From a virus, in the IMG/VR virus record IMGVR_UViG_3300042569_003487, positions 77,926 through 141,925 of that record: a DNA stretch of 64,000 bases, one strand, 5' to 3'. Below the pieces are notes generated by a model. That model did not search any database. It worked only from the letters and a program-made list of their open reading frames with translations, and was not told the origin of the DNA. Numbering within the stretch: position 1 is the first letter of the stretch; each line of letters begins with the position of its first letter. The position numbers and the translations under genes are program-made. Of the stretch, positions 7,750-56,728 are shown one piece after another.

Positions 7750-7770
7750 CTATGCCCAGTTTGTTTTTGT

Positions 7771-7778
7771 TATTTATT
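7771..7778 (-). promoter_or_regulatory. Late promoter AATAAATA inside a CCAGTT/AACTGG inverted repeat
   Basis: TAATAAATAACAAAAA context is shared with the copies at 28405 and 34650. Confidence 0.65.
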
Positions 7779-7796
7779 AACCAGAACTGGCTTTGC

Positions 7797-9107
7797 TTAA
7801 AGAGCAATCTCAGTCTTAGAATCTTTAGTTGCATGGTATGCAAGAGGCGACCCTACGACTAGGCATTCAGTTAAATTTGCAGAAACTTGCATGTCTGGAC
7901 GACCCTTAATTGTTGATTGTTGAATCGTATTAACTCCAGATTGATTAAAATTACAATTAGAGAGATTTGAATATCTAATATCATTTTTATCAAAAATTGT
8001 ACACTCTAATAATCTAGAGCTTCTAACTTTACAGTTAAGAATTGTACATTCAGAAAGTTCGGCTTGAATAGACGAGTTAATAAAAACAATATTTGAAAGA
8101 TTAAATCCATTTTTAATTCGACCCTCTAAAACTTCAATTTGATTAGTTTCAGAATTATAGTTGACATTTCCTCTAACAAGACCGCCGTATGTTACCAAAT
8201 CAAAAAGTTTTTCTCTAACAAGATTAAATTTAGCTGATAAAATTTCTGGTCTAGGATCTAAATCCATTGTTAATTTTATCAGTGGATATTTAGTTTCAAA
8301 TGTAGAATAGCTTTTTAGTCCGCTTAGGTGGGTTTTTTGTTCAGTTAAAATTTCTTTAATTTTTGCACGATCTGTATCTGAATAAACTGAATTTGATTTT
8401 AGTGTTGAAAATAAGGATTCTATTACTAGATTTAAAAGTTCAACGGCTTGGGTTGATCTCTTTTCATAGTTCTTTCCGCCAATATACTTAACTGTCACAA
8501 AACCTTCGCTTATTCGGTCAAAGTTAACACCAAATTGTTTTGATCTTGGAAAGCTAAATTCCATTTGTGAAGAGTAACTTCCAGCCGGAACGGTTGCTTC
8601 AGCAATAAATTTATTTTTTGGGTATATTAGATTTATAGAATGCTTGAAAATTTTACTAGAGCGAATTTCTTGGGGCCACAACTCAAATGCTTTAGCTTCA
8701 TTAAAATTAAGTAAAAATTTAAATTTATTTAGTTGAGGAATTCTTGCTCCCTCATTCATTTTTGAAAAGCCTAAATCAATCTTAACTTTACATAATTCAT
8801 TAGTATAACCATTTTCTTCAATAAACTTAAATGATTTAAGTAAAGCATTAACCCCTTCATAGTAATAAACTGGGCCAATTGTCATGCGCTTCATTTTAAA
8901 ACCATTATTATAGAGATTAGTTAACCTTGCTCCATTTTCTTTTACTGGTTGCCAAGCATCCTTTGTTGCGCCAACTTCTACTTCTCTATGTAAAGAAGAC
9001 TGGGCCTTTTCTGCAAGCTGTTGAATTGATTTATTTGAAAAGAAATCCACAGTAAGTACAAACTGTGCAGATTCAACCTGTTCTCTATTTTTAATGTCTA
9101 AAATCAT
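7797..9107 (-). CDS. Amidoligase (COOH-NH2 ligase type 2)-like protein, catalytic residues apparently lost, with a C-terminal beta-helix-like region
   Basis: GP-x-x-Y...FIEENGYTNE-x-C, KQFGVNF and YIGGKNYEK patterns recall phage amidoligase homologues; pentapeptide-like tail. Confidence 0.45.
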   Translation of the reverse strand: MILDIKNREQVESAQFVLTVDFFSNKSIQQLAEKAQSSLHREVEVGATKDAWQPVKENGARLTNLYNNGFKMKRMTIGPVYYYEGVNALLKSFKFIEENGYTNELCKVKIDLGFSKMNEGARIPQLNKFKFLLNFNEAKAFELWPQEIRSSKIFKHSINLIYPKNKFIAEATVPAGSYSSQMEFSFPRSKQFGVNFDRISEGFVTVKYIGGKNYEKRSTQAVELLNLVIESLFSTLKSNSVYSDTDRAKIKEILTEQKTHLSGLKSYSTFETKYPLIKLTMDLDPRPEILSAKFNLVREKLFDLVTYGGLVRGNVNYNSETNQIEVLEGRIKNGFNLSNIVFINSSIQAELSECTILNCKVRSSRLLECTIFDKNDIRYSNLSNCNFNQSGVNTIQQSTIKGRPDMQVSANLTECLVVGSPLAYHATKDSKTEIAL

Positions 9108-9117
9108 AAAATATTTA

Positions 9118-11181
9118 TTATCTGTTTATACCAATATAAGGAATATTTAATCTTGGACGGCAGTTATCGATTATTCTTAGGATCGATTCATCCTTAATGA
9201 ATAATTGGCTGATTACAAAATCATGGTCTTCCTCTTGAACCATTGTATTAAAAATTCTAATATTTGCAATATCAATCGGTGAAGAAACTAATCTAAAGTT
9301 TTCATTAATTGAAAAATTAAATGAACTTGCTCCAGTTAGGGTCTTTGCTGAATTATGTAATTGCGTAATTTCATTAAAGTTATTTGCATTAGCTGGATCT
9401 TGAGTAAATCCATAAATTGTTAATGCGGCTTGATTAAATTGACTTGAAATTGGAACAAATATTGCATACCATTTATCAATCTCTAACCTAACTTGATTAA
9501 ATTGAGTTAGAGTTGAATTTATTTCAAGTCTAACTGTTACATTTTTATCGGTTGAATTATTAATAGTACTAATACTTCCATCCAGTTTTAATCCCTTTGA
9601 ATTATTATTATCGTAAGTATCAATAAAACTAATTGAATCAGTTAGCGAGTTTATTTTAAATAGCGCAAAGAACGTCATATTAGACTTGTCTTCTCCGAGT
9701 TTTCCAACTTCATTATAGACTACTCCATAATCTCTAGTTAAAATATGCACATGTCCATTTACATCTTCTTCAAATGCTAATTGTCCAGGCGTAAAAAAGT
9801 TTGAATCATTATATCTGTCGATTTTAATATATCGACCTAATAATGGATCGTTTGAATTATACGGTCCTCTAATTTTAATTGGAGCACCATTACTTAAATC
9901 ATAGGTTGTTAATTTATAACCCGCCCATAGAGCAAACAGCTCAGATTCTTCGTATGCGATTAGAGTGTATTTAGTAGCTGGATCTTCATATTTAACCGAG
10001 TATTTAGTAAAATTCGTTGAAACTGGATCCACTGTAATTGGTACGCTAGGTACGCTTTTACTTTCATAATAGTATTGAATTAGCGGCGAATAATTATAGG
10101 TTAGGGCTAACTGTTTAATCTTAAGATCTGGATGAAGAGCCTTACGCGTTTCATCAAATCTAGTAGAAATTGTTTTAAATTGTTGAGGCATAGTTGCATC
10201 TTTAACCTCATCAATCATTTGATCTGCAAATAATTCGTCAGTACTTGTAATAATATTATCCAAGAACGTACGGTCCTCGGCCTTCATCATCATATCAATA
10301 TTAGGTTGGAATTTAACTAATTGAATTTTCCAATAAACTGGTTCCTGCATAATTCCACGATATAAGTAGGTACCTTGAATTTCATACATACGATTAGTTA
10401 ATGGAAAATAGAGGAAATCTTTTTTGCGAGGATGCGCCGCTGCACCAAAGATTGTTTGGAAATATTCGTGATCGAGATGGATTTCGAACGGCATTTCAAA
10501 ATCAACACCAAATTCTGCGTATGTAGGCTTATTATCTGGAAATTTATTTCCGGGTACAAGGACCTTAATGCACTTTCGGCTAATAGTTTTGAATAGAGTC
10601 CACTCTTTGAAAACATAGTCTGCAGAGTCTCTATCTGGTTCTGTTTTAAAATAAACAACTTCATGTCCAAATAATTTATTAGTATTAAAACTTAATTGTT
10701 TAAAAATATTTACTGCCTGGTCTGCCGCATAAGGATTAAACGACATTGTACCAGTTGAAATAAGAGCTGGACAAACCTCATCACTGCAAGTAATACTTGG
10801 TGTAAATAGACTTGGCACAGAATCCGCTGCAACAATTTTAAACTTTATTTCATTTACAACAATTGGATTTGCAAGTTGGTCCCTAGTCGTATTATTATAT
10901 TCATACTTTAATTCAACAAATAAATCCGAATTGTTAAAAGCAAGTGCTGTAATGTCCGCAATATCATACCAAAGTGACCAGTTTCCACGGTCTACTGAAT
11001 ATCTAAACTTTTTGCTTAAATAGTTTTGGTTATTACCGTTTAAGTCAACATCGTCAGTAAAACTTGTAATTGAATATGCTCCAGGCAAAGGATCCTTTGT
11101 TGAAAATAATCTATAGTTACTACTGAATGTCAGACTTGACTTAGAAGTCTCTGGAATAAGCTTTAGGGTAATTGTCTGCAT
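9118..11181 (-). CDS. Neck/head-completion protein (T4 gp14-like domain) with a C-terminal LamG-like domain
   Basis: FGHEVVYF...FGVDFE...F...PRKKDFLYFPLTNRMYEI...WKIQLVKF. Confidence 0.6.
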   Translation of the reverse strand: MQTITLKLIPETSKSSLTFSSNYRLFSTKDPLPGAYSITSFTDDVDLNGNNQNYLSKKFRYSVDRGNWSLWYDIADITALAFNNSDLFVELKYEYNNTTRDQLANPIVVNEIKFKIVAADSVPSLFTPSITCSDEVCPALISTGTMSFNPYAADQAVNIFKQLSFNTNKLFGHEVVYFKTEPDRDSADYVFKEWTLFKTISRKCIKVLVPGNKFPDNKPTYAEFGVDFEMPFEIHLDHEYFQTIFGAAAHPRKKDFLYFPLTNRMYEIQGTYLYRGIMQEPVYWKIQLVKFQPNIDMMMKAEDRTFLDNIITSTDELFADQMIDEVKDATMPQQFKTISTRFDETRKALHPDLKIKQLALTYNYSPLIQYYYESKSVPSVPITVDPVSTNFTKYSVKYEDPATKYTLIAYEESELFALWAGYKLTTYDLSNGAPIKIRGPYNSNDPLLGRYIKIDRYNDSNFFTPGQLAFEEDVNGHVHILTRDYGVVYNEVGKLGEDKSNMTFFALFKINSLTDSISFIDTYDNNNSKGLKLDGSISTINNSTDKNVTVRLEINSTLTQFNQVRLEIDKWYAIFVPISSQFNQAALTIYGFTQDPANANNFNEITQLHNSAKTLTGASSFNFSINENFRLVSSPIDIANIRIFNTMVQEEDHDFVISQLFIKDESILRIIDNCRPRLNIPYIGINR

Positions 11182-11201
11182 TACAGATGGCGCTTTCTTT
11201 T

Positions 11202-11209
11202 TATTTATC
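11202..11209 (-). promoter_or_regulatory. Late promoter GATAAATA (divergent pair)
   Basis: Upstream of the 11181 start. Confidence 0.6.
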
Positions 11210-11234
11210 CAAGTTTGGCCTGGCGGCTAACTTA

Positions 11235-11242
11235 AATAAATA
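11235..11242 (+). promoter_or_regulatory. Late promoter AATAAATA (divergent pair)
   Basis: Upstream of the 11262 start. Confidence 0.55.
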
Positions 11243-11261
11243 TCAATAAAGATCCGGCACC

Positions 11262-12062
11262 ATGAAGTCTAACTTGAATGTGCCAGTCCTGGATCCACTA
11301 TGGCTGGCAAACTCTAAATATGTGGATCTCGAATACTATAATTATGTTTTGCTTGATGCTAAACAAAAGTATCTCGCAGATCTTAAGTCGGGATCTTTTT
11401 CTAGATTCCATGAAATCCTATTTCATTATCTGAATTTAAACACTGTAATTGTCGATAAGGGAGTATACGATTCTTCCTATAACTTTAAAAAGGACGATCG
11501 GCACGTTATGGAAATTATTGCCTCATTAACCAGAAGTAGAGAAGAATTTGGTGGAGAAATCCTAAGAATGGGGTCTACAATTCTCTCAGAAACCCTTACT
11601 GAATATTTAGATATTATGCTAGATAAACTGGCATACACTAGACTCTATTTTAACTCAGCTAAGCTCCATAAGTTAGATTCAATTTATGTTGCTACTACGC
11701 AAAATCGGGCTAAACTAAATCATATTTGGAAGATTGCTAAAGATAAAGACGTACCATTTATGATTAGTCATGAACATCAACTAGAAATTAATGAGTTTTC
11801 TTGTGAAGATGGAGAATTTGATGAACTGCTAAGTCAAGTTAAGCCTGAAATTAAGGACTTTTCTGCTAAGAAGAATGTTATGGTAATATCGTCAGTTAAG
11901 AAAATAAAGGACGATCGGCTGTTTGATCTAGCATTGGCTACGATCGTTGCCAATAAGCTTCTGAATCACTCCAGTGGATTTAATTCCAATATCTTATTGG
12001 ATATTAAGTCTACATTTGAAAGAGGCCAGGTGATCCCCTATAAGCTCAGATCTTTAACTTAG
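11262..12062 (+). CDS. Hypothetical protein (only plus-strand gene in the structural block)
   Basis: 266-aa ORF that exactly fills the gap; N-terminal W...DLEYYNYVLL motif. Confidence 0.75.
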   Translation: MKSNLNVPVLDPLWLANSKYVDLEYYNYVLLDAKQKYLADLKSGSFSRFHEILFHYLNLNTVIVDKGVYDSSYNFKKDDRHVMEIIASLTRSREEFGGEILRMGSTILSETLTEYLDIMLDKLAYTRLYFNSAKLHKLDSIYVATTQNRAKLNHIWKIAKDKDVPFMISHEHQLEINEFSCEDGEFDELLSQVKPEIKDFSAKKNVMVISSVKKIKDDRLFDLALATIVANKLLNHSSGFNSNILLDIKSTFERGQVIPYKLRSLT

Positions 12063-12674: not shown

Positions 12675-12675
12675 A

Positions 12676-27361: not shown

Positions 27362-28384
27362 TTAGATGTTATAAACTGCGTTTGAATCTCCAGTTACAAC
27401 AAGTCTTGCTTGGTTAGTTCCCCAAGTTGAAGGTAAGTTTGCACTGTTTTTAACAGTACCTACATTCATTAGAGTAACAGATGAATTAAATAGATTTGTG
27501 CTTAATCCAACTGCCCATTGTGAAGCAAGCGTAGTATGAGTCGAATCTAGTCCTACTGCATCTTGATCCATTATTGCAAAATCTTGTCCTATAATTCTAA
27601 TTTTATGCGTAGCTGAGTTTGCCGCAGCAAAAGTTTCATAAGTTCCGCTTACGTGAGTTGTGGTACCACCAGTAGTATAGGTAATTGCTCGTACCATAAT
27701 TTTAAATTCTTGACCTGGTCTTATTGGAGAGTTTGTATCGTTTATTAGAACAATATCAATACCATCTGTAATGGTGCTCTGGAAAGCACTTCCACTATAA
27801 AATGAGCTAGCGTCTAGAGTTAATATAATTAAGGATTTGCTTGTTGCAGTTAGAGTAACTTCGGCTTTTGCACGGTTTGCACCAGATACCGCGACTAGAT
27901 TTTTTGTAACGTCTTCCTTACTATTAGAGAAGCTTCCAGTAATATTAACTGAACCAGCTAAGTTAGATTGACCGTTTGCTGTAATTGCTCCGGTAAAAGT
28001 TGATGTACCAGAGATAGCAAGGCCAGCTGAAGTAATTGAAGAGTTAGCGACTAAGGTTCCGGTTGTAATTTTACCTACAAGAGCACTGTTAACAGTTTCA
28101 GTTTCAAATTTAATTAAATCTGCAGTACCATTTACATTTTTAAAATATAACTGTCCGTTTTGAATAGTTAATACCCTTGTTTTTAACTCAGTTAGTGGAG
28201 TTAGGGTAGAATCTGGGTCAACTCCGATCTTTTTATCAGAAAGATCAATTTTTAAGTTGTTAATTAGATCTTCTAGTTTACTCTTAAGCAATCCAACATT
28301 GCTATTTGAGATAATACGCATATCTGAAACATACGTGGTTTCTAGAATTTCTTGTGTTGATAGTGATAGTGCAACAAAAGCCAT
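27362..28384 (-). CDS. Putative fibre/baseplate-associated structural protein
   Basis: First gene after a late promoter; fibre-like SGTSTFTGAITANG repeats. Confidence 0.55.
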   Translation of the reverse strand: MAFVALSLSTQEILETTYVSDMRIISNSNVGLLKSKLEDLINNLKIDLSDKKIGVDPDSTLTPLTELKTRVLTIQNGQLYFKNVNGTADLIKFETETVNSALVGKITTGTLVANSSITSAGLAISGTSTFTGAITANGQSNLAGSVNITGSFSNSKEDVTKNLVAVSGANRAKAEVTLTATSKSLIILTLDASSFYSGSAFQSTITDGIDIVLINDTNSPIRPGQEFKIMVRAITYTTGGTTTHVSGTYETFAAANSATHKIRIIGQDFAIMDQDAVGLDSTHTTLASQWAVGLSTNLFNSSVTLMNVGTVKNSANLPSTWGTNQARLVVTGDSNAVYNI

Positions 28385-28404
28385 TTGTTTTTTCTATTTT
28401 TTGT

Positions 28405-28412
28405 TATTTATT
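28405..28412 (-). promoter_or_regulatory. Late promoter AATAAATA inside a 13-bp perfect inverted repeat
   Basis: Arms 28391-28403 and 28460-28472. Confidence 0.7.
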
Positions 28413-28477
28413 AGTAGAGTGTCGCCTCACAAATAATGGACGACTAGCCTTCTTGTACTCAAAAAATAGAAACTGGC

Positions 28478-32068: not shown

Positions 32069-34633
32069 TTAGTTTTGAGTTACTTTTACTGTAAAATTAT
32101 TTGTATTTGAACTTTCTTTAGCAGTAGCATATACTTTATTATTTACAACTTTATATCTAAATTTAGAAATAGCACTATGTGTTGACGCATTTAATTGAGT
32201 AACTAAATTATCGATATTTGAATAGGTTGGAACTGTGTATGGATCGTGTAAACCTAATCTTATTTTATGACCGACGGTTGGTGCATCAATTGAAAATCCT
32301 TGTAAGAAATCTGATTGATACGATAATTGATAGAATTTAGTATGGAAGAGATCTCCAATTTTTGCATTAGAAATATCACTCACTCTAGGCTTAACCGAAT
32401 TGTCTCCAAGTCCCCAAGAATACGCATAATCTGAAACTAGGGTTGGATCGCTAACGACCTTAAATTCACCAGTTAGCTTGTCTTTTATTTTTGCTTGAGT
32501 CGGTGCTGTATTATTACTAAAGTTATTTGCGTAATATGACCAATCGAATAGTTCTTTTTCTAAATCAATTGATCCTATTTTTTGGGTGAATGAAGGAATT
32601 GTTACATTTGGGTTAAACATGTAACTTCCTCCCATATCTCCGACTGTAACATTAGTTAAGTCTTTAAACTGATATGAAAACTTATCTGATGTTCTGGTAA
32701 AACCAACTGTAGTTGAAATAGTTGGATTTACTTTAAATTTAATAAAATCTACAGATATTCCAGCAAATTGATCGTATACTCTTGCTTCAATTAAATATTC
32801 TCCAATATATGGTAAAACATGTGCAATCTTATTGAAATCATAAATGTTTCCTCTATAACTCCACTTATATGCGTTTGGTGAGTTTGGTTCCGGATTCTTT
32901 GTAATTATCCATTCAATATCAACTAAATTTAGATATACTGCAATATCTCTTAGTCTTACTCCTTCAGTTTCTAAATCGCTAAATGTTATTCCATCATAGT
33001 CTAACATTTGATACAGTGGAAGATTTGCTTTTAAAATAATAGGGCAGCCTATTTGTGATTGTTCATTAACTTCGCCATTCGACCAATAGTAAGATCTTCC
33101 GTGCTTTCTCCATTCTTCAATTGAAACCTGTTCATAAAATGTGGTTATTGCTAATATTAGAGCTTTTTGTTGAGCTGCTGAATAGGTTTGACCTCCGTCA
33201 TATGGATTTACAATTGCAGAAAAGACTGGGGTCATATCAATCTGCGGTTGAAGTAGCCCTGGTAAAATATTAGGTACACCCTTTCCGGTATTAAATGAAT
33301 ATTTAGGAAACCCTTCTAAAATTTTAGTTGGATTACCTATTTCAGCCTTGTCTGAATAGAATAATGGTCTAATATCTCTAATGTATGGAACGGCAATTTC
33401 AGATGAAGGTGAATGGACGCTTGCTTTGATTTTAGTGTTAATATTAACACTTTTAATCTCTGTGTCATCTGTCCAATATCTAAGATTAAATTTTTCAAAA
33501 AATATAAATTCACCAATAATATCCCTAACTACAACGTTTATAGGTAGAATTTCGCGCTTTAACTTTTTAGCAAGACCGTCTAATTTATAAAAAATCTCGG
33601 CTGGAGTAAAATCCGTAGTTTCAACTACTTCAGGTAAACCGTCATCGTCGTAATTATCAGTTGCTTTGGTAAATTGATAGCACAGTGCTAAAAATGAAGT
33701 TTTCTTAAATTGAGCAGAATCTGTTAAGGCTCCACCAGTAGAAACACTAACCATATTATCAATTTTGCCATCATCTAACATATCTGTAATGTTAACTAGT
33801 GCAAATGTATTTAAATATTGAGAGGTTGAGTTTGAGTTTTTCCAAAATTCTTTAGCTTCAAGAACATCTTTATATCCAAACAGATTGATAAAATTAACTA
33901 AACCTTTATAGGTACCGACATATGGAAAAACCTGATCGCGATTTACTAAAATTTCCTTTCTTGCCTGGTTAATCTGTTCCCAATCTGGTAAACCTTCTTT
34001 AATGTTATAATCTTTTAATAGTTGAGCATCTTCAATGTGAAACGATATTCCAAAATTTTCCATCCAATTACGATATCTAGAATCCTCGTCTACACCTTCT
34101 CCATAATAGTCTATTTCAAGTATTTTGGTTGAAGTAATATTTCCATTTGATACAATTTCGTGATATGCAAGTAGCTTTCTGGTATAAATTTTTTCTTCAG
34201 TTGGAGAAAAGGCAATATTTACCTGCATTGGATATTTAATGTAAAGTTGCGAAGAAGACCCGTTTGAAAAATCTGAATGATTTAACGTGATTGAATCGGC
34301 TTTTTCAATAAAGGGTAAGTCTGTATCACTATTACCACTTATATCCTGTTTTATATTATAGAAAAAGAAGCTATTTGTAGGGTCAGATGTTTCCCATTTA
34401 AAAACAATTCTCTCGTTTTGGTTAAGTGTTGGAAAAAGATACTCTGGGTTAGAGTATTCCAAGATAAAGATTTGTCGACTATCAAATAAGCCTAATGATA
34501 CTGGTTTAATATACTCTCGACCATACTGCCAGGCAATAGAGTCACTTTTACTAGTTTCAGCATTATACTTAGTAAACTGGAAGTTATAGTTTTCACCAAA
34601 CTTATCAAAAAATATGAGGTTAGACAGTTGCAT
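32069..34633 (-). CDS. Putative baseplate wedge-like structural protein
   Basis: YVGTYKGLVNFINLFGY recalls wedge/tail-I motifs; ATG at 34633 (ORF track starts at TTG 34636); late promoter upstream. Confidence 0.45.
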   Translation of the reverse strand: MQLSNLIFFDKFGENYNFQFTKYNAETSKSDSIAWQYGREYIKPVSLGLFDSRQIFILEYSNPEYLFPTLNQNERIVFKWETSDPTNSFFFYNIKQDISGNSDTDLPFIEKADSITLNHSDFSNGSSSQLYIKYPMQVNIAFSPTEEKIYTRKLLAYHEIVSNGNITSTKILEIDYYGEGVDEDSRYRNWMENFGISFHIEDAQLLKDYNIKEGLPDWEQINQARKEILVNRDQVFPYVGTYKGLVNFINLFGYKDVLEAKEFWKNSNSTSQYLNTFALVNITDMLDDGKIDNMVSVSTGGALTDSAQFKKTSFLALCYQFTKATDNYDDDGLPEVVETTDFTPAEIFYKLDGLAKKLKREILPINVVVRDIIGEFIFFEKFNLRYWTDDTEIKSVNINTKIKASVHSPSSEIAVPYIRDIRPLFYSDKAEIGNPTKILEGFPKYSFNTGKGVPNILPGLLQPQIDMTPVFSAIVNPYDGGQTYSAAQQKALILAITTFYEQVSIEEWRKHGRSYYWSNGEVNEQSQIGCPIILKANLPLYQMLDYDGITFSDLETEGVRLRDIAVYLNLVDIEWIITKNPEPNSPNAYKWSYRGNIYDFNKIAHVLPYIGEYLIEARVYDQFAGISVDFIKFKVNPTISTTVGFTRTSDKFSYQFKDLTNVTVGDMGGSYMFNPNVTIPSFTQKIGSIDLEKELFDWSYYANNFSNNTAPTQAKIKDKLTGEFKVVSDPTLVSDYAYSWGLGDNSVKPRVSDISNAKIGDLFHTKFYQLSYQSDFLQGFSIDAPTVGHKIRLGLHDPYTVPTYSNIDNLVTQLNASTHSAISKFRYKVVNNKVYATAKESSNTNNFTVKVTQN

Positions 34634-34649
34634 CAACTTGGCTTTTTGT

Positions 34650-34657
34650 TATTTATT
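34650..34657 (-). promoter_or_regulatory. Late promoter AATAAATA inside inverted repeats
   Basis: Flanked by TGGCT/AGCCA and AACTTG/CAAGTT. Confidence 0.65.
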
Positions 34658-34674
34658 AGCCAGGAATTGGCAAG

Positions 34675-35094
34675 TTAGATAGTGTAGATTTCGCTCTCGC
34701 CAGAATGACTTAGTGAGATAGTTACGATCTTTTCACCCTTTCCTATATGTTTATAGATCTTCTTGTATTCCTTGGCATATCCATTTTTTGCAATTTGGGT
34801 AAAATACGCAAATGCATTATTGGATTTTTCTTCATTAAAGTTCCTCCAATATCGTAAAAGATCTAAAAGAGCTGATTGAATACAGTCTTCCCTGTCTAGT
34901 GGATTTTGGAATTTTAATTTTTGAATAGCACGATTTGCTAAAAGGATAAAATAGTCGATTGCTTTTGGGGAAAGTTCGCCTTTTGTATGCTGATAACCAG
35001 TTTCTTCATTTAAGAGACCGTGTTTACAACGGATAATTTCATTTGTGAAGTCTCTATTATTAATATAATACTTCGGGTCTTTAATTCTTGCCAT
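34675..35094 (-). CDS. gp55: T4 gp55-like late-transcription sigma factor
   Basis: YYINNRDF...REDCIQ...NFNEEKSNNAFAYFTQI signature; matching late promoter motif throughout the window. Confidence 0.85.
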   Translation of the reverse strand: MARIKDPKYYINNRDFTNEIIRCKHGLLNEETGYQHTKGELSPKAIDYFILLANRAIQKLKFQNPLDREDCIQSALLDLLRYWRNFNEEKSNNAFAYFTQIAKNGYAKEYKKIYKHIGKGEKIVTISLSHSGESEIYTI

Positions 35095-38346: not shown

Positions 38347-38367
38347 TTATATTTTGCCTAAGTCTTC

Positions 38368-38375
38368 GTTAAATA
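38368..38375 (+). promoter_or_regulatory. Late-promoter variant GTTAAATA in the loop of an 8-bp inverted repeat
   Basis: AAGTCTTC (38360-67) / GAAGACTT (38383-90), ending 3 nt before the TTG start. Confidence 0.5.
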
Positions 38376-38393
38376 AAAAAAAGAAGACTTGCT

Positions 38394-41300
38394 TTGTCAG
38401 AAATCGACAGTCTTATTGAACAAATTAAATGCGAGCTAAGAGAAAACCCCTTCTTTTCTGAAGGGGATCTTGCTGCTTTAGATGCATGTTTACCTAGCTC
38501 AGATGAATTAGAAAATGCTCAAATTGAAGCTATTGAAGAAATAGTTGCGGAAAATCCCTGTGCTAAAAAATCAATTGATGCAATAAATTCAGAGCTAGAA
38601 AAAAACGATGCAAAATTAAAGGCTGCAGTCAAAGCAAAATACGTAATATCTAGATTACAAGAACTTAGAGACCTTCTTTACCCAGCTGAATATTTTTATA
38701 AAACCAGATCAGAATTTTTTAATAAGATTATCAAAGACCTAGATAATAGGTTTACTGTAGCTGGTGCAAACTACAATACAGAATTTACTAATATTTTAAA
38801 TAAGTATGAACTAAATTCATATAAATTTAATGCAGTTGCAACAACAACAACAATATCAGCAATTGATCAATTAAACAAAGATATTAAGTCTCAAATTGAA
38901 GATTATTTTAGTAAAAGAACCTTTGCTGTTACTAATACTGATCCAATTAAATATTCATATAATTCAGATAATCCAACATTTTCTATAAGTCTTCCTGGAA
39001 AGGATGGATTTTCTATTAAGTCTTCTGAAAATCAAAAAACAGGAAAGGTTGATTCTTTTGGTAATTCTGAAACCAAGCAAGTTGAAGTTAATGTTAAAAT
39101 TTTACCAGAAGATTCAATTTATGAAACTAAAGATAAAGTTTTTCAAAAACGTACCCTTAATTTAGTTAACATCTCTTCACAAAGGTATACAGATAAATCT
39201 GCAACTGATTCACTATATCCATTTTCTGGACATCTTGCAAATTTCTATAAGAAAATTGAAGACCCTCTTACTCTTTTCACACTAGAAGAAAAAGGATTAA
39301 CCACTGATTCTGTAAAAACTGATAAAAATCTTACCAAAGAAAAATTAGATGGAATTGTTAAAGAGCAAAGAGCAGATGGAAGAGAAGAACAATTTTATAT
39401 TGAAAATACAGAAACCTATCAAAAATTTTATGAAAATCTTGAACCTAAGATTGAGGAAAGAATTGAGGCTGAACGTACTAAATTTAGAAAAGGTCTAATT
39501 GAAACAGGTAAGCTAATAAAATTATCAAATCTTGCTAAAAAACAGGTATTTGATTTAGTTAACAATAGTCAGTTAATATCTACTCCAACTGAAAAGCTTA
39601 TCGTTAATGGTAAAGAGATTAAACCTAGCGAATACGGCCAACAGATTAGAGATAAAATTCAAAAGAGCGCCGACGAAATTTCTAAATTAGTTAAAGACAT
39701 TGAAGCTCGTATTGCCGCTATTAAAAAAGCAAACACGCCAAATCCAGATGATTTAGCAAGCGCTCTTTCTGCAACCGGATGTCTTCCCCCAACTGAACCT
39801 CCATGTAAATCTTTACCTAAAGCTGGATCTGACCCATTGGGTTATAAATCAATGACTATTCCAGCAACAATGGCTCAACCAGATTATACTTGTAATTGTT
39901 ATTGGAAAGAAGTTACTAAACACCTAAATAAATTAAATCTACTTCCAATTCCAGATATAATGCGATTGCCGGCACTTAGATATTGGCCAGTAGGAATCTT
40001 AATTCCTTTGCCTGTTCCAATTAGAATTCCGCTTCCTCAAATTTGGAAACATATTATAACATTAAATTTACCATTTGGTACACTTGTTGTTTGGTATATT
40101 CAATGCGGAATAGTACCATCTCCAATTGTTATGTACATCGGGCCAGATGGAAAAAAGATTATTCTATTAGGATTTAGAGCGCTTCAAGGTCAATTTGATC
40201 CAGTTGGCTATACAATTAACGAAAGCCCTAAACAACCAGCTCCGCTTGGAGTTACCCTTAGTGAAATTGGAAAACCTACTGGAACTTCAATTAAAACTCT
40301 AACGTTTGGCACGATTTTACCAGATTCAGTCATGGAAAAAACTGCGAAAGTTATAGCTAAGGCTCAAGTAATTACAGAACTTGTTACTGAAGGTAGACTA
40401 ATGCCAAATGGCTTTAATATTCCATTTAAGCTTGGCGAAAAACCTAATTTTAATACCGGTGACGCTGACCTACTTAGTCAAGTTGCAGATGGAGTTGAGG
40501 ATTTTCAGTTATTTGTTGAAAATCTTAGTCGACGTATTTGTAGGAAAATTGATGAAATTGGAGATATCGATTTACCTAATTTTACTCTAGCTCTAGTTGA
40601 TGCTGAACAAGCTGCTAAAGATAGAGCTCAAATATTAAGCGGCCTACCATATAATTTTGATTCAGCTTGGTTAAATTGTGATCCAGCTAACCTATCAAAT
40701 AATATACCAGCTGATGTTATTACAAGTGCAAATACTGATGCTGGCACGCAATGTAAAGAAGTTATTCTATCACTTTCATTAGATTTAGATAGTTTTTTAG
40801 ATAAACTCAAACTAGGAACATATAAATTTCCAAAAAAGAAAGGAAAACAAATTAAACCACAAGCATTTTTAGATGAAATTGTTGATAATTTAATTGAATA
40901 CTTATCTGATACAAACTTTGGAAAAAGCAGAAATATTAATTTAAATAAAAGATTTAGAAAAGCTATGCAAGATCTAGACTTGGATGCAGAAATTGATGCA
41001 ATCCAAGCTAGCGTTGATCTTAGTAAAAATGAAGACTTAATTGCATTTAAGAAAACCCTAAAGAAATACGTAGATGAAATTTGTGATGTAATGTCTGGTA
41101 AAAATATAAAGGTTGATAAAACTAAGCCAGCCTTTAAGCGAAGAGTCAATAATGAAAGAAAGCGCAGAATCCGATTTAATTTAATAAATGGAATCAATAT
41201 TAAAGATATGGTTGGGTCTACTCCAAATAAAGACGATAAAGATTTGTTAATAGACATGTTTAAACAACAAATTGCAAAATCGAACATTGATCCAACTGCT

Positions 41301-43870: not shown

Positions 43871-43894
43871 GTATATTAAGATAAATATCTTTAT

Positions 43895-44035
43895 ATGACA
43901 CACGGCAAAATTACACCAGATGTTACGTTGAAAGCACGTCAAATTACAGAGAACAGCGCAGCTTATCACAAATCAACATCCATTTTTAAAGCCCAACCGA
44001 GTCAAACTTTATTCACCTTTAAAAAATTAAATTAA
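43895..44035 (+). CDS. Small 46-aa ORF (MTHGKITPDVTLKARQ...FTFKKLN)
   Basis: Manual translation; fills the gap before nrdB; GATAAATA at 43880-43887 directly upstream. Confidence 0.45.
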   Translation: MTHGKITPDVTLKARQITENSAAYHKSTSIFKAQPSQTLFTFKKLN

Positions 44036-45025: not shown

Positions 45026-47434
45026 ATGAAGGTTACAAAAAGAGATGGCTCATTAGAGACACTAAAACTAGATAAGATCACCAACCGTATTAAAAAACAA
45101 ACATACGGTTTAAATTTAGATTTCGTAGATGCCCTAGAAGTTGCAACTAAAGTTGTAGCAGGTATCTATGATGGAATTACTACAGTTGAACTGGATAATT
45201 TAGCAGCTGAAACATCAGCTTCTTTAAATCACGTACATCCAGATTATTCATATCTTGCAGCTAGAGTTGCAATTACCAGATTGCACAAAACAGTTAGCAA
45301 GAAATTTTCAGAAGTAATTGAGGCTTTATATTCATATACTGATCCAAAAACTGGTCTTCCAGCTGGATTAATTAATGATGATGTAATTAAAGCAGTTCGC
45401 AAACACGCCGATATTTTAAATGAATCTATCTTACATGATAGAGATTTTAATTTTGATTACTTTGGATTTAAGACTCTAGAAAAGAGTTACCTACTTAAGA
45501 TCAATGGTCAGACAGCTGAAGCTCCTCAACATATGTACATGAGAGTTGCAGTTGGTATTTGGGGAGATGATATTCAAAATGTTCTAAAGACATACGAACT
45601 ATTATCTACTCATAAAATGACCCATGCTACGCCTACTCTATTTAATGCTGGAACAAAAAGACCTCAATTATCTTCTTGTTTCTTATTAACTATGCAGGAA
45701 GATTCTATTCAAGGAATTTACAAAACCCTATCTGACGTTGCTGCAATTTCACAAAATGCAGGCGGTATTGGATTAGCTATTCATAATGTTAGAGCAACCG
45801 GTTCTTATATTAAAGGAACCAATGGTACTTCTAATGGAATTGTTCCAATGCTTAAAGTATTTAACGAAACTGCTAGATACGTTGATCAAGGCGGTGGAAA
45901 ACGCAAAGGTTCATTTGCAATTTATCTTGAACCTTGGCACGCTGACGTTGAAGATTGGTTAGACCTTCGTAAAAACCATGGTAAAGAAGAGCGCAGAGCT
46001 AGAGATCTTTTCTTAGCTCTATGGACTCCAGATTTATTTATGGAAAGAGTTGAAGCCGATGCAGATTGGACTCTATTTTGTCCGGCCGAAATTGGTGTTG
46101 AACTTTGGGAAATGCATGGTCAAGAATTTAGAGATAATTACGAAAGACTTGAACGTGAAGGTAAAGGTCGCCGTACAATAAAAGCAAGAGCTCTTTGGCA
46201 AAAAGTATTAGAATCTCAAATTGAAACCGGAACACCTTATATTCTTTATAAAGATGCGGCCAATGAGAAATCTAACCAAAAAAATCTAGGTACAATTAAG
46301 TCTTCTAACTTATGTACTGAGATTATGGAATACACAAGCAAAGACGAACAGGCTGTTTGTAACTTAGCTTCAATTGCAGTTAATCAATTTATTAAGTTTC
46401 CAGAAAAGAGATCTTTAAAACAGCGTAGAGCCCATGCAGAATATGATCACCAAGCCCTATACGATGTTACATATCAAACTACCTTAAATCTTAATAAAGT
46501 AATTGATATTAATTTCTATCCAACTCCAGAGACTAAAGCTTCTAATATGAAGCATCGTCCAATTGGAATCGGTATTCAGGGAATGGCAGATACTTTTGCA
46601 ATTTTAGGTTTACCTTTTACATCAGATGAAGCTAAGAAATTAAATGAAGATATTTTTGAAACAATTTATTTTGCTTCAATGAAAGCTTCAGCTGATCTTT
46701 CTAAAAAACTTGGAGCGTACGAATCATTTGAAGGAAGCCCATTAAGTGAAGGTAAATTCCAATTTAATCTTTGGGGTTTCGAAGATTCTCAACTTTCAGG
46801 CAGATGGGATTGGTCAGCCCTTAGAAAACAAGTTATGAAAACTGGTGCTCGTAATTCTTTATTGTTAGCTCCAATGCCGACTGCATCAACCGCTCAAATC
46901 ATGGGTAATAATGAAGCGTTTGAAGCATTTACCTCAAACTTGTATACTAGAAGAACACTTTCTGGAGAATTTGTTATTGTTAACAAACATCTAGTAAGAG
47001 ACCTAGTTGAATTAGATTTATGGTCAGATAATTTAAAAAATAAAATTATTACTGAAAAGGGGTCAATTCAAAATATTGCAGAAATCCCAGTTGAAATTAG
47101 AGAAATCTATAAAACTGTATGGGAATTAAAGCAAAGAGAAGTAATTGATATGTCAGCAGATCGTGGTAAATTTATTTGTCAATCACAATCGCTTAACCTT
47201 TTTATTAAGGACGCAAATGCTGCAAAATTAACTTCTGCTCATTTCCATTCTTGGAGAAAGGGCCTTAAAACTGGAATGTATTATTTAAGAACAGAATCTG
47301 CAGTTGATGCTATTGCTGGTCTTGGAGTAGACTCTGCTGCACTAAAGCAGTCAACTCTATCTGCTGAACAAATCCAAAGCGATCTAGTTTGTTCGCTTGA
47401 TAATCCAGACGATTGTATTGCCTGTTCTTCTTAA
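45026..47434 (+). CDS. nrdA: Ribonucleotide reductase class Ia alpha subunit with ATP cone
   Basis: VTKRDG ATP cone, QLSSCF, SNLCTEI, APMPTAST, KTGMYYLR, C-terminal CIAC. Confidence 0.98.
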   Translation: MKVTKRDGSLETLKLDKITNRIKKQTYGLNLDFVDALEVATKVVAGIYDGITTVELDNLAAETSASLNHVHPDYSYLAARVAITRLHKTVSKKFSEVIEALYSYTDPKTGLPAGLINDDVIKAVRKHADILNESILHDRDFNFDYFGFKTLEKSYLLKINGQTAEAPQHMYMRVAVGIWGDDIQNVLKTYELLSTHKMTHATPTLFNAGTKRPQLSSCFLLTMQEDSIQGIYKTLSDVAAISQNAGGIGLAIHNVRATGSYIKGTNGTSNGIVPMLKVFNETARYVDQGGGKRKGSFAIYLEPWHADVEDWLDLRKNHGKEERRARDLFLALWTPDLFMERVEADADWTLFCPAEIGVELWEMHGQEFRDNYERLEREGKGRRTIKARALWQKVLESQIETGTPYILYKDAANEKSNQKNLGTIKSSNLCTEIMEYTSKDEQAVCNLASIAVNQFIKFPEKRSLKQRRAHAEYDHQALYDVTYQTTLNLNKVIDINFYPTPETKASNMKHRPIGIGIQGMADTFAILGLPFTSDEAKKLNEDIFETIYFASMKASADLSKKLGAYESFEGSPLSEGKFQFNLWGFEDSQLSGRWDWSALRKQVMKTGARNSLLLAPMPTASTAQIMGNNEAFEAFTSNLYTRRTLSGEFVIVNKHLVRDLVELDLWSDNLKNKIITEKGSIQNIAEIPVEIREIYKTVWELKQREVIDMSADRGKFICQSQSLNLFIKDANAAKLTSAHFHSWRKGLKTGMYYLRTESAVDAIAGLGVDSAALKQSTLSAEQIQSDLVCSLDNPDDCIACSS

Positions 47435-47440
47435 TAAATA
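47433..47440 (+). promoter_or_regulatory. Late promoter AATAAATA
   Basis: Overlaps the nrdA stop, upstream of a CTS-bearing gene. Confidence 0.55.
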
Positions 47441-51398: not shown

Positions 51399-51419
51399 CT
51401 GACATTTACTCATTATATT

Positions 51420-51449
51420 AAGCCCTAAGTATTATGCTTGGGGCTTTTT
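51420..51449 (+). terminator. Rho-independent terminator
   Basis: AAGCCCTAAGT-ATTAT-GCTTGGGGCTT followed by a T-run. Confidence 0.75.
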
Positions 51450-51469
51450 GTTTATAGTATATTAACTAT

Positions 51470-52006: not shown

Positions 52007-52030
52007 AAAAGGTCCCATTTGGGACCTTTT
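52005..52030. terminator. Bidirectional terminator between convergent genes
   Basis: AAAAAA-GGTCCC-ATTT-GGGACC-TTTT. Confidence 0.85.
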
Positions 52031-52049
52031 CTTTATTAGGTTAATAGTA

Positions 52050-53273: not shown

Positions 53274-53296
53274 TTTATTGATTAGTAATTTTTAGT

Positions 53297-53304
53297 TATT
53301 TATT
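53297..53304 (-). promoter_or_regulatory. Late promoter AATAAATA
   Basis: Between the sheath terminator and the 53273 start. Confidence 0.65.
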
Positions 53305-53320
53305 TAGTCTAGTTAAATAG

Positions 53321-53345
53321 AAAAAGCCGCTTAGTGCGGCTTTTT
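53321..53345 (-). terminator. Rho-independent terminator of the tail sheath gene (symmetric)
   Basis: AAAAAGCCGC-TTAGT-GCGGCTTTTT. Confidence 0.85.
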
Positions 53346-53367
53346 CGTTTATTAAATAGTCTTCTTA

Positions 53368-56300
53368 TTAGAAAGAAGGAATAAATCCAGTAGCTTGAGA
53401 AGAAAGACCTCCACCAACTTTTGTAATTGTAATACGGTTGATGAATTTGTGAATACCTCTTGGGAAATCTAAGAATACGTCAATGATTGCTGTATTTGCA
53501 GATAATACCTCTGGGCCATTATTTGTTGTATCAAATACCACAGTGTATGTTGCAATACCTTGTGCATTCTTTGCTCTCTCCAAATATCCTTCAACTAGAG
53601 TTTTAATTCTTAGACGAGTAATCTCATCATTAAAATCAAATAGGAAGTTGAATAGGATTCTTTCGATATCTTTTTCAATTGTTGCAAGAGCTTCTCTAAC
53701 GTGAATGTTGTTAAGAGCTGAATTAATTTTTTGATATGCAGTATTGTTTGTGAATACCATAATACCAAAACCTCTTCTTCTAACAATCATATTAAAACCA
53801 GCTGGTTCTAGATAGTCTCTGTCTTCTTGTGATAATTCATATTCAACATTAACTACATCAGAATCTCCGATTATACCGTGTTTACCTGCTACAATTGAGA
53901 AAGGTCTGCCAGATTCATACTTATTCATAAATGCATTTGCAACATACGCTGCAGGTGGAACTGATTTATTTCTTCCATTATCATTTACAATTAAGTTAGG
54001 CATAAAATATGCAGCGTAAGATCCCATTGGAACTCCATTAACTTCTTCATCTACGAATCTAAATGTTGTAGTTGGATTAAGATCCAAATTACCACCATCT
54101 GCGATATGTTTAGCAGAAACTAATTTTGTAGTTACATCAGCAAATGAAGGTTCAGTTGATAATTCAAGTTGTCTAATTGATGGAGAGTTTAGGATAGCTA
54201 AACACTGTCCGTTATCTGCTGCAATTTTTGCTAAATAATATTTAGAAGAACCTGAAATATCTCCTTCAAATGTATCAATAATGTATCTAAAATCTACGAT
54301 TTCGCCTTCAGCTAACGTCTTAGCGATATTTGTATTTTCATACAACCATCCTAAAATATCAGATTGACGGGCAGATGTTCCATTAGGAAGTTGAGCATCT
54401 CTCATTGTAAATCCTCCTAGTTTTACACCTTTTGCTGCAGTAATATAATTTCTAATACCTTTATGGAAAATCATATTTGAATCAATATCAATACCAATAA
54501 TCGTTGAATCACTAGGTACTAACGTTGTAACTACAAAGTTCTTATAGGTTTTTACAGTAGTTGTTGTGTAACCAGGAACTAAAGCTTTTGTAAACGTGTA
54601 AGTTCCACCGCTAACTCCGGTAGTTGGAGTAGATAGAGTTAATACTAAACCTACTTTATTTGTTACTGTAGTATTTGGTGCAATACCTGTACCAGATACA
54701 GCACATCCAATTACAATATTTGCATTTGCTGCGCTTAGCGTAATACTAGTTGCTGCTGCGATAAATGCATCTATTGCGATTCCACTTTCATTAACTGCAG
54801 GCACGGCTGGCGTAGGTACTGCACTAGTTGAAATAATATCAGTTCCAGCAACTGAAACAATTTTTAAGAATCTTGAACGACCTGCTCCATTTGCTTTAGC
54901 TTTAACATAATAGTTAGGCTTTACAAATTCTGCAACTTCTGCTAAATAAGAAGCATTGCTTGGAGTTACAGTAGCCGCAGCATTTCCTACCGTTACTGAA
55001 GTTGAGCTAAGAACTTTCATCTCAATTTTATTAAGAGCAAGCTTAGTTGTTGTAATTTCAGCACCGTTATTATTTGCAGCAAGCTCAGCAGCAAAATCAA
55101 ATACTTTCGTAGTTGAGTTTGTTCCGTGAATGTCTAACGAAAGTTTAACAAAAGTATCAACTACTGTAATTACTGGAATAGTTGCGCTCTGGTTAGTTAA
55201 AGTAATGTTATCGAAACACTTAATTTTAATATAGTTTTTGGTAACTAAGTTAACTACTTCAGTAAATCCTGATTCAACTTTAACATATTTAGATGCGGTC
55301 GTTCCATTTTGAGTAGTAATAAAACCATTACCTGTTACAATAAATCCGTCATACCATGCTTTATAAAGTTGAGTACCTTCACGAGCAATAATAATTTGAT
55401 TACCATTCTCAGTTACAACTCTACATGAATCAGAAATTCCAGTTGTAACTTCAAATACTGCAGTATTTTTAACAGGAGCTTTATAACCAAGTACATCTAA
55501 TTTAGCATTAGCATCAGTGTAGTCTCCAAGGAAACCATTATCAATGAAATAATCTTGGAAATCTGCTGCAATAAGATCCATGTAACCATGTCCAGCTAAA
55601 TCGATTCTGTGCGAATCCATAGAAGCATTTGCAAATGCAGTTTCAAGATCGATTAATTCGATTTTATTTTCATCTAATGCGCAAAATAATTCGGTTTGAG
55701 AGAATAGTCTATTGAATACTCTATCAATTGAAATATCTGCACCAGATGCGTCTTTAAATTGAGGAATTAGCGAACCGTTTACTCTTGCGATATTCTTAAC
55801 TTCTCTTAAGTTTAAGAATCCGTTAATCTTAGACATAATAATACCTCTTTCATTGAAGTATGATTTGTAAACAGGGTCGTTTGCAAGTCTTGCATTATCT
55901 GTCCAATCACCTTCTACGGCGATTAATTCGATGATATAGTCAGCAACAATATCATCTGGGTGAAGATATGTCGGAATAGTTACTTTATCACCACCGGTAA
56001 CTTTGTAATATTCCTTAATTGTTACATCGTATCCAGCAACATCAGCTAGTTTTGCCCAAACAGTAACTGGGCGCTTTCCTAGGTTAACAATAGAAAAAAT
56101 CTTATTGTCATCTTCTGAGCTCAACGCGTTATTTTTAGTTCTGTTGAACTGGTCTTCGTCAGCATACCATAATTTCTGTGTGTTAAAGAAACTAGAAAGT
56201 GGTTGCTCGAATGCAGATGCAGTAAAGTCTGAATTAAATGATCCAGATTCAGTGTTGAATGTTGCAAATGTTACTTTGTCTAATGTATCGTCAGTTGGCA

Positions 56301-56580
56301 ATACGTTCAAAGCATAAACTGGGCCTTTTCTTAGCGCTACTTCTAGTGTTCTATGGAAATAACTGCCCTTGCTTTCAAGTTTAGTGTCTCTTTCACCATA
56401 AACTGCTAGCGCACTGTTTAAGTCGCTTAAAGCCACAACTGTATTGATTGGTCCTCTTTTGCTAGATCCGATAACTAATCGGCCAGTTCCTAGAGGTAAT
56501 GCAATGTTTTGGCTCTCATCGATTTCGACTGTGTAGACGCCACTTGATTTAAAGCGATTGAGATTTAATTTTTGTGCCAT
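53368..56580 (-). CDS. gp18: Contractile tail sheath protein (T4 gp18-like) with large insertions
   Basis: SGVYTVEID, GPINT, VPPAAYV, NNIHVRE...FLFDFNDEITR...VVFDTTNN. Confidence 0.9.
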   Translation of the reverse strand: MAQKLNLNRFKSSGVYTVEIDESQNIALPLGTGRLVIGSSKRGPINTVVALSDLNSALAVYGERDTKLESKGSYFHRTLEVALRKGPVYALNVLPTDDTLDKVTFATFNTESGSFNSDFTASAFEQPLSSFFNTQKLWYADEDQFNRTKNNALSSEDDNKIFSIVNLGKRPVTVWAKLADVAGYDVTIKEYYKVTGGDKVTIPTYLHPDDIVADYIIELIAVEGDWTDNARLANDPVYKSYFNERGIIMSKINGFLNLREVKNIARVNGSLIPQFKDASGADISIDRVFNRLFSQTELFCALDENKIELIDLETAFANASMDSHRIDLAGHGYMDLIAADFQDYFIDNGFLGDYTDANAKLDVLGYKAPVKNTAVFEVTTGISDSCRVVTENGNQIIIAREGTQLYKAWYDGFIVTGNGFITTQNGTTASKYVKVESGFTEVVNLVTKNYIKIKCFDNITLTNQSATIPVITVVDTFVKLSLDIHGTNSTTKVFDFAAELAANNNGAEITTTKLALNKIEMKVLSSTSVTVGNAAATVTPSNASYLAEVAEFVKPNYYVKAKANGAGRSRFLKIVSVAGTDIISTSAVPTPAVPAVNESGIAIDAFIAAATSITLSAANANIVIGCAVSGTGIAPNTTVTNKVGLVLTLSTPTTGVSGGTYTFTKALVPGYTTTTVKTYKNFVVTTLVPSDSTIIGIDIDSNMIFHKGIRNYITAAKGVKLGGFTMRDAQLPNGTSARQSDILGWLYENTNIAKTLAEGEIVDFRYIIDTFEGDISGSSKYYLAKIAADNGQCLAILNSPSIRQLELSTEPSFADVTTKLVSAKHIADGGNLDLNPTTTFRFVDEEVNGVPMGSYAAYFMPNLIVNDNGRNKSVPPAAYVANAFMNKYESGRPFSIVAGKHGIIGDSDVVNVEYELSQEDRDYLEPAGFNMIVRRRGFGIMVFTNNTAYQKINSALNNIHVREALATIEKDIERILFNFLFDFNDEITRLRIKTLVEGYLERAKNAQGIATYTVVFDTTNNGPEVLSANTAIIDVFLDFPRGIHKFINRITITKVGGGLSSQATGFIPSF

Positions 56581-56602
56581 TTCGGTCCTACTATTTTTAA
56601 GT

Positions 56603-56610
56603 TATTTATT
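56603..56610 (-). promoter_or_regulatory. Late promoter AATAAATA at a hairpin apex (second copy GATAAATA at 56657-56664)
   Basis: TAAGTTA/TAACTTA and GTCCTA/TAGGAC arms. Confidence 0.7.
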
Positions 56611-56728
56611 TAACTTAGGACTCATGATTTTGGTCTAGATTGTCCTTTGCTATCATTATTTATCATCGTAAAGATCTTAGTATATCTAAGACAGTATAAG
56701 AAATTACTAAAAACCCAATTACTCACAA

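Follow-up and report, generated by a model that had tools for sequence, protein, structure and literature searches.

gp55-type late promoters and a few candidate promoter-in-hairpin locks in an uncultured T4-like phage

Does an uncultured T4-like phage lock its late genes, as a class, behind RNA hairpins that enclose their promoters? The question is raised by a 64-kb stretch of viral DNA (the window; 64,000 nucleotides, nt), which is the right-hand portion of a 141,925-bp IMG/VR contig (IMGVR_UViG_3300042569_003487, positions 77,926 to 141,925) estimated to be ~55% complete and with 35% GC. A first-pass annotation proposed that at seven late-gene starts (7749, 11181, 28384, 34633, 38394, 43895 and 56580) the late promoter sits between the arms of an inverted repeat whose 3' arm covers the translation start, so that read-through RNA would be silenced by a generalised second layer of late control. 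Our analysis of the sequence favours, with moderate confidence, a narrower answer, in which late genes are driven from gp55-type promoters and a few of them may carry weak, gene-specific hairpin locks of the T4 kind that do not amount to generalised control. The general claim fails because the stems are no better than those of shuffled spacers and do not covary at the window's own sites.

For the promoters themselves the finding is firm. A gene encoding a gp55-type late sigma factor of 139 residues lies at 34675-35094 on the minus strand and matches phrog_234, "late sigma transcription factor" (E 4.6e-18; E 8.6e-19 in a genome-wide search), the family into which T4 gp55 itself falls (E 2.9e-69). 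Homologues of gp55 are present in nine of the ten related contigs searched (G001-G008 and G010). Octamers containing ATAAATA are enriched 30-40-fold within 50 nt upstream of the starts of open reading frames (ORFs), where 22 of the 25 genome copies of AATAAATA are found, and the reverse-complement word shows no comparable placement before genes. In total there are 34 gene-proximal ATAAATA promoters on the contig, with 12-13 in the window. The consensus of the box runs on in the 3' direction as a-ATAAATA-A-Y-a-A-a-A-A, and the information content upstream of the box is close to zero in the consensus derived from the contig sites, so that there is no -35 element. Boxes stand before the sheath, neck and decoration-like genes, and the one before the sheath gene is kept in 38 distinct relatives. 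The assignment of the motif to a gp55-type late promoter, as the first-pass annotation had it, is thus borne out by the sequence. Among T4-family phages, cyanomyoviruses have NATAAATA variants of the late box.

The leaders behind these promoters are SD-less, again as first annotated. Cores of the Shine-Dalgarno (SD) sequence occur in 7% of the -20..-4 regions compared with 13% inside genes, and the leaders are 49-53% A. This SD depletion and the A-rich leaders fit a Bacteroidota-type, SD-less host. In Flavobacterium and other Bacteroidia the ribosomes ignore the SD sequence, and structure and A-rich context tune initiation (PMC6847099, PMC7797042). The distance from box to start codon is bimodal in all eleven genomes, being either 4-8 or 16-28 nt with few values between. 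The shorter spacing is found in ~15-20% of late promoters (for example ATAAATA-NCTTAT-ATG), and the mRNAs of this class would be leaderless or nearly so if their starts are placed as in T4.

When the seven named starts were inspected, the promoter-in-hairpin arrangement was recovered at five (7749, 28384, 34633, 38394 and 56580) and was missing at 11181 and 43895. At the minus-strand ATG at 7749, the ATAAATA box (7771-7777, 21 nt before the ATG and conserved in relatives) is enclosed by a hairpin at 7756-7790, in which CCAGTT (7785-7790) faces AACTGG (7756-7761) across a 23-nt loop. The helix is worth -4.8 kcal/mol, its 3' arm ends 6 nt before the ATG, and it is present in the minimum free energy fold, the z score of which against shuffles is +0.10. 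The tail sheath gene (53368-56580, minus strand; phrog_34521, E 2.9e-92) has its box at 56603-56609, 22 nt before the ATG at 56580, within a hairpin at 56585-56621 formed by GTCCTA (56616-56621) and TAGGAC (56585-56590; -5.1 kcal/mol, fold z -2.39). A second late motif on the same strand, at 56657-56663, lies upstream of the 5' arm of this hairpin.

The gene that starts at the minus-strand ATG at 34633 encodes an 855-residue protein and follows the gp55 gene directly. Before it are a box at 34650-34656 and two alternative stems that together span 34635-34676 (fold z -1.60). The inner stem pairs TGGC(T) at 34658-34662 with (A)GCCA at 34639-34643 (-3.3 kcal/mol), and the outer one pairs AACTTG at 34671-34676 with CAAGTT at 34635-34640, abutting the ATG (-1.5 kcal/mol). 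The first-pass annotation missed a further stem at 2160-2191 on the minus strand, where ATAGAC (2186-2191) and GTCTAT (2160-2165) bracket the late promoter at 2175-2181 of a gene for a 2056-residue protein with a GTG start at 2152 (-3.6 kcal/mol). The repeat at 28384 is of a different kind. Its box (28405-28411, minus strand) is 20 nt before the ATG, and the inverted repeat (28392-28471) is a long-range one of 12 bp, all A/T but two, with a 56-nt loop and a helix of -7.6 kcal/mol; the 5' arm (28460-28471) is ~50 nt upstream of the box, and the 3' arm (28392-28403) is inside the A-rich leader. Between these arms, at 28425-28455 (minus strand), there is also a small stem around a conserved ATTATTTG loop, the arms of which vary among close relatives (GTCGTC/GGCGAC here and GTTACC/GGTAAT in L146).

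On the plus strand, an 8-bp hairpin at 38360-38390 (AAGTCTTC / GAAGACTT; -8.7 kcal/mol, fold z -2.15) has an A-rich loop of 15 nt that contains TTAAATA. The hairpin stops 3 nt short of the start codon, a TTG at 38394, of a gene for a 1413-residue protein. This TTAAATA was rejected as a standard late promoter, because its position weight matrix score of 9.2 is at the bottom of the training range and is equalled at 49 positions in the genome. Orthologues in other clades use near-leaderless promoters. In the G006 orthologue (L179:19100-19170, plus strand) a terminator-like hairpin and a GTAAATA variant box are followed by an ATG 5 nt on, and the start codons of the G002 and G005 orthologues, ATG or GTG, come 6-9 nt after an ATAAATA.

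Taken by geometry, the late promoter lies between the arms at 7749, 28384, 34633, 56580 and 2152, and RNA started at these promoters would be missing the 5' arm. At 7749, 56580, 34633, 2152 and 38394 the 3' arm stops short of the start codon by 2-7 nt. The stems were considered as terminators and rejected, since their loops measure 15-56 nt and no T run follows them; binding sites for a dimeric regulator were likewise rejected, as the arms differ at every site.

The two remaining named starts do not have the arrangement. The minus-strand gene at 11181 and the plus-strand gene at 11262 are served by back-to-back divergent late promoters (11202-11208, minus; 11236-11242, plus), and the fold of 11181 has no leader-covering stem. 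One of its hairpins lies wholly 5' of the motif or abuts it, a second small hairpin on the ATG would also be present on late RNA, and the larger palindrome, which does fold in silico, consists of the two divergent late boxes themselves. At 43895 (plus strand, an ORF of 46 codons) the lock geometry is absent: the motif at 43881-43887 belongs to the near-leaderless class, with the ATG 7 nt on, and itself forms the stem, leaving essentially no leader (fold z -0.66).

It had also been noted that two late genes insulated by an upstream terminator lack a leader stem, and this observation holds. The promoter at 2629-2635 (ATG 2602, fold z -0.17) and that at 53297-53303 (ATG 53273), both on the minus strand, have no such stem in the fold and lie downstream of terminator-like hairpins with a T run at 2661-2685 and 53321-53345, respectively. 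The contrast drawn from it with the other late genes carries no weight, because five stem-less late promoters (4185, 9107, 11262, 47459 and 43895) have no upstream terminator. Among these, the promoters at 4212-4218 (minus strand, before ATG 4185; q=0.98 in the 12-nt test described below) and 47434-47440 (plus strand, before ATG 47459) have no stem, and that at 9112-9118 (minus strand), 4 nt before the ATG at 9107, is of the near-leaderless class.

Comparison with chance used as its main control chimeras that join the 5' flank of one late promoter to the leader of another from the same genome. Chimeras keep composition and promoter context, and only site-specific complementarity is destroyed. 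With flanks of 25-60 nt, the phage under study (G000) gave p=0.06 to 0.69 for duplex energy, partition-function cross-promoter pairs and best perfect helix, the flank/leader chimera tests by themselves giving p=0.30 to 0.69; across six genomes 9-10 of 224 sites were in the top 5% of their own chimeras, where 11.2 are expected. Accessibility was computed as the energy required to open positions -12..+6, once for a long RNA (-100..+30) and once for a transcript that begins 6 nt past the box. The extra opening energy on the long RNA was 1.58 kcal/mol for late genes and 1.87 kcal/mol for the other 105 genes (Mann-Whitney p=0.68), and the mean z of the late genes against dinucleotide-shuffled upstream parts was -0.13, so that late-gene starts are no more occluded than either reference. 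The sole site that is clearly more occluded on the long RNA is 28384 (opening energy 10.6 versus 3.6 kcal/mol, z 2.8 against shuffled upstream sequence); the predicted extra opening energy is 7 kcal/mol at 28384 and 2152 and 1-2 kcal/mol at 7749, 34633 and 56580. With ~27 of the 34 late promoters devoid of such a stem, and with the broad and accessibility tests null, the word "generalised" has to be dropped from the description of late control. The three tests with 25-60 nt flanks (RNAduplex, partition function and best helix), all null or marginal, are insensitive to short close-in stems, and their outcome was therefore weighed against a general device only, leaving individual stems untouched. 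For the seven named sites, the mean fold z of about -1.3 was rejected as evidence, since both the sites and the edges of the folded segments had been chosen for their stems.

The helix test was then repeated on the 12 nt directly 5' of the box, a choice made post hoc. In this form it gave p=0.002 for G000, 0.045 for its 89%-identical close relative G001, 0.029 for G002 and 0.005 for G004, with no signal in G003 and G005. Within G000, seven sites score at least 13 where 1.9 are expected; the stem at 7749 tops its chimeras (q=0.00), and that at 2152 has q=0.03. Over ten non-duplicate genomes and 404 sites the pooled p value is 0.0005, and the excess is in the tail: scores of at least 15 are reached at 24 sites (11.0 expected), at least 17 at 11 (3.2 expected) and at least 19 at 6 (1.0 expected). 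The 3' arms of strong matched stems have a median distance of 4 nt from the ATG, compared with 8 nt for strong chimeric stems (p=0.02), and random, mostly coding positions show no surplus of the same geometry. The surplus of local stems is real but small, amounting to a few per cent of late promoters, and it is not clearly specific to late promoters.

Close relatives were gathered for the genes at 7749, 28384, 34633 and 38394. Throughout these relatives the 3' arms are invariant, being part of conserved leaders, and the 5' arms drift. The 7749 stem has lost its 5' arm in L156 with no compensating change; between G000 and G001 both of its arms are unchanged while about one-third of the neighbouring loop bases differ, which we regard as mild evidence of constraint. 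Among five distinct relatives, four have a 28384 stem that is short of one to three pairs against an invariant 3' arm, and the stems at 28384, 7749 and 56580 are all absent from distant orthologues. In the 89%-identical clade the sheath hairpin has a T>G in its 5' arm that the 3' arm does not compensate, and the leaders of 37-38 distinct sheath orthologues gave p=0.07 to 0.65. The stems at 34633 are invariant in close relatives, the 2152 stem is identical in G001, and at 38394 both stem and loop are conserved in four close relatives, two of which have lost the outer pair.

To look beyond the window, the proteins encoded downstream of all 445 sites were grouped into families. One family stood out, the prohead protease (~660 residues, N-terminal Peptidase_S77, phrog_207), which is encoded in relatives at L111:12877-14853 (+), L102:15509-17482 (+), L181:13182-15209 (-), L189:17113-19059 (-) and on L212-L291. 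There the late promoter is within a hairpin whose arms covary. In 44 distinct orthologues the matched helix scored 11.45 compared with 8.86 (sd 0.31) for chimeras (p<1e-4), and ~13 arm pairs occur, such as AAGCCC/GGGCTT, AAGTCTA/TAGACTT, TCAAGAGTCT/AGACTCTTGA and TGGTCT/AGACCA, with C>T on one side matched by G>A on the other. In every case the loop holds the box, and the start, often TTG or GTG, is in or beside the 3' arm. RNAalifold found no consensus structure for 14 protease leaders, because the arms are in different registers among clades, and the protease case accordingly rests on the matched-versus-chimeric test and on the distinct arm pairs. The family of the 34633 gene, which is directly behind the gp55 gene in most relatives, gave a modest signal (50 distinct leaders, matched 9.82 versus chimeric 9.03, p=0.0056), and its G004 orthologue has an 11-bp stem that ends at the ATG. 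No conserved stem was seen in the 28384, 11181, 11262 and sheath families, the mean quantile for the 11181 group being 0.76. Pairing maintained by covariation is thus found at the protease gene of relatives and weakly at 34633 orthologues, and not at the sites of the window itself; gene-specific T4-like locks are plausible in this lineage. A second family of ~630 residues without a Pfam or PHROG match (L110:9902-11770, plus strand; L182:9482-11395, minus strand; and five further orthologues) has promoter-bracketing stems in most genomes, with a mean quantile of 0.12. Its arms are pyrimidine-rich and purine-rich, and composition may contribute.

If the preferred reading is correct, the late system would work as follows. 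A gp55-type factor would recognise the extended -10-like box, 16-28 or 4-8 nt before the start. Most inverted repeats around such boxes would arise where T-rich upstream DNA faces an A-rich leader. At about five of the 34 promoters on the contig, stems of 5-7 bp start no more than 12 nt 5' of the box and stop 2-7 nt ahead of the start codon; RNA begun further upstream would carry both arms and could fold over the initiation region, and RNA begun at the promoter in the loop would be without the 5' arm and would be translated. The position of the transcription start, ~6 nt past the box, is inferred, as are any translational effect and the time at which read-through RNA is made. Where these close-in stems act at all, they probably do so in the manner of those at T4 e, soc, 49 and I-TevI. 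In the window the best lock candidate is 34633, which appears to be the only site to fit an early read-through logic, since it lies directly behind the gp55 gene and the latter must be expressed before the late genes. Within the block from 2152 to 11181 the genes further upstream also belong to the late class, and 7749 and 2152 follow genes with their own late promoters; read-through RNA would be late here too, so a lock in this block would not be directed against early read-through. For the sheath gene, the sole upstream element on the same strand is the second late box.

Several findings weigh against even this restricted reading. The 12-nt test was picked after the broader tests had failed, and in the hold-out set (five related contigs had been fetched in full first and five more later) it gave a pooled p of 0.36, with G006 at 0.014 and the other four null. 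Gene starts without the motif show a similar surplus of scores of at least 15 (21 versus 12.9), as do intergenic midpoints without a box (56 versus 29), and the stem excess may therefore be general to non-coding DNA and not to late promoters. The close-in helices are worth only -1.5 to -5 kcal/mol because of their 16-30 nt loops. Of the seven best stems of G000, four are intact in the 89%-identical G001 and three (56603, -20982 and -39080 in window coordinates) have decayed there. Relatives show no compensatory pair for any of the window's stems, and the 5' arms decay one-sidedly. The protease gene is not on the studied contig, and in two clades, one of them the window's own (L216-L221), its stem is weak or absent.

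The same body of evidence bears on the competing explanations. The model first annotated, in which hairpins that span the promoter keep the whole class of late genes translationally locked on read-through RNA, now appears hardly tenable. It can draw on the geometry at five of its seven sites, on the seven close-in stems of G000 where 1.9 are expected, and on SD-less leaders, at which even weak structure could matter (PMC6847099); yet it has to contend with ~27 stem-less promoters out of 34, start accessibility equal to that of non-late genes and shuffles, top-5% counts at expectation over 224 sites, and orthologue groups of 28384, 11181, 11262 and the sheath gene with no conserved stem. Many upstream neighbours are late as well, which would make the read-through RNA late too. 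An explanation at the other extreme, possible but in our judgement unlikely, is that the window's stems are inert and reflect chance complementarity of T-rich and A-rich segments together with the generic surplus of inverted repeats in non-coding DNA. The nulls with 25-60 nt flanks, the comparable surplus at motif-free gene starts and intergenic midpoints, the hold-out result, the weak helix energies, and the decay of 5' arms opposite 3' arms fixed within conserved leaders would all follow from it. Inertness does not sit well with the p value of 0.002 for G000 in the 12-nt test, the tail of strong stems across genomes, the unchanged 7749 arms in G000 and G001 amid a loop in which about one-third of the adjacent bases differ, or the signal at 34633 orthologues (p=0.0056), and the lineage clearly keeps such stems at the protease gene.

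The stems might also be functional without being read-through locks, an option that we hold to be very doubtful. They could present the A-rich loop single-stranded beside a weak start as a ribosome landing pad (38394 and the protease genes, with TTG or GTG), set the translation balance between the tandem late promoters at 56657 and 56603, or act on promoter opening at the DNA level. The loop at 38394 is conserved along with its stem, TTG and GTG starts abut stems, a second late motif is present upstream of the sheath 5' arm, and in T4 the hairpins of genes 25 and 38 enhance initiation (PMC3014915). On the other hand, late RNA beginning ~6 nt past the box would lack the 5' arm and so could offer no loop. 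Loops of 15-30 nt make cruciform extrusion unlikely on DNA energetics, which counts against the DNA-level variant.

Returning to gene-specific locks, the window's stems may be regarded as new candidate members of a known form of control that is best evidenced outside the window. A broader proposition, which we put forward only tentatively, is that T4-like phages of SD-less Bacteroidota maintain, as a form of control independent of an SD sequence, promoter-in-loop hairpins that occlude the start or the A-rich leader, often at a weak TTG or GTG start, with the protease gene as the most conserved target, the 34633 gene as the second and the stems of the window as local, partly decayed members. 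If the stems do work, the T4 trick of licensing translation by the position at which the RNA starts would extend to phages whose hosts ignore the SD sequence. Such phages would then be a test bed for the response of SD-less ribosomes to local structure, as only structure and A-richness set initiation there. The result is otherwise mostly corrective, in that AT-rich spacers with T-rich upstream DNA and an A-rich leader readily yield hairpins to the eye. For the annotation of this uncultured phage group, the gp55 gene, the extended consensus, the two spacing classes and the protease hairpin of relatives should be useful.

The gene content of the window is that of the late, structural region of a large myovirus of the T4 superfamily. 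Megablast of 20 kb against a phage collection gave no match, and identity was therefore taken from protein searches, by which the nearest cultured phages infect Flavobacterium, Tenacibaculum and Prevotella. The sheath protein is closest to those of uncultured jumbo phages, Flavobacterium phage MaF61, Prevotella Lak phages and Tenacibaculum phage pT24. Further products include a neck/head-closure protein, a decoration-like protein, a baseplate-wedge connector and ribonucleotide reductase. A second family of words (TTAGTATA, GTATAATA and AGTATAA) is enriched before genes, for example at 56677-56690 on the plus strand and in other intergenic regions, and relatives retain it, read as TTATACT, on the sheath strand; it probably represents host-type promoters, early or middle, that serve the divergent gene. 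A T-rich box, TTTTTTTAGATTTATT, is conserved in most other clades 12-30 nt upstream of the sheath promoter, and read on the opposite strand as AATAAATCTAAAAAAA it resembles a near-consensus divergent late promoter. Outside the window, at contig position ~56,900 (window coordinate ~-21,000), the sequence just upstream of one near-leaderless late promoter ends like the T-arm and acceptor stem of a tRNA (GGTTCGACTCC...).

How close does this system come to those already described? In T4, the late promoter is an 8-bp box located one helical turn before the start and without a -35 element (PMC2988020). The phage studied here resembles the gp55/gp33/gp45 late transcription of the T4 family (TATAAATA box, PMC2988020) in encoding a gp55 homologue, in its 8-bp A/T box with -10-like spacing, no -35 element and an A/T-rich downstream segment, and in placing boxes on both strands before structural genes. 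It differs in the first base of the box, which is A or G where that of T4 TATAAATA is T, in the 3' extension of the consensus (A-Y-a-A-a-A-A), in its probable Bacteroidota-type host and in a sizeable class of promoters with the ATG only 4-8 nt past the box. Its A-rich leaders and depleted SD cores are those of SD-independent initiation in Bacteroidia such as Flavobacterium johnsoniae (PMC6847099, PMC7797042), with which it would share structure around the start as the main tunable feature, although the genes here are phage genes. The use of promoter-containing hairpins by T4 at e, soc, 49 and I-TevI, which the first-pass annotation had cited, is confirmed by the literature, with I-TevII/III and Aeh1 mobE as additional cases (PMC3014915). 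In common with these masks, the stems described here have a late promoter between their arms, place the 3' arm within the initiation region and are gene-specific and not general; a long transcript would fold, and one begun close to the promoter would be missing the 5' arm. Unlike the T4 masks, they have no SD sequence to hide and would cover only the A-rich leader or the start codon, most of their 3' arms leave 2-7 nt free before the ATG, and none of the window's own sites covary. Their stems are also shorter (5-7 bp, with loops of 16-30 nt).

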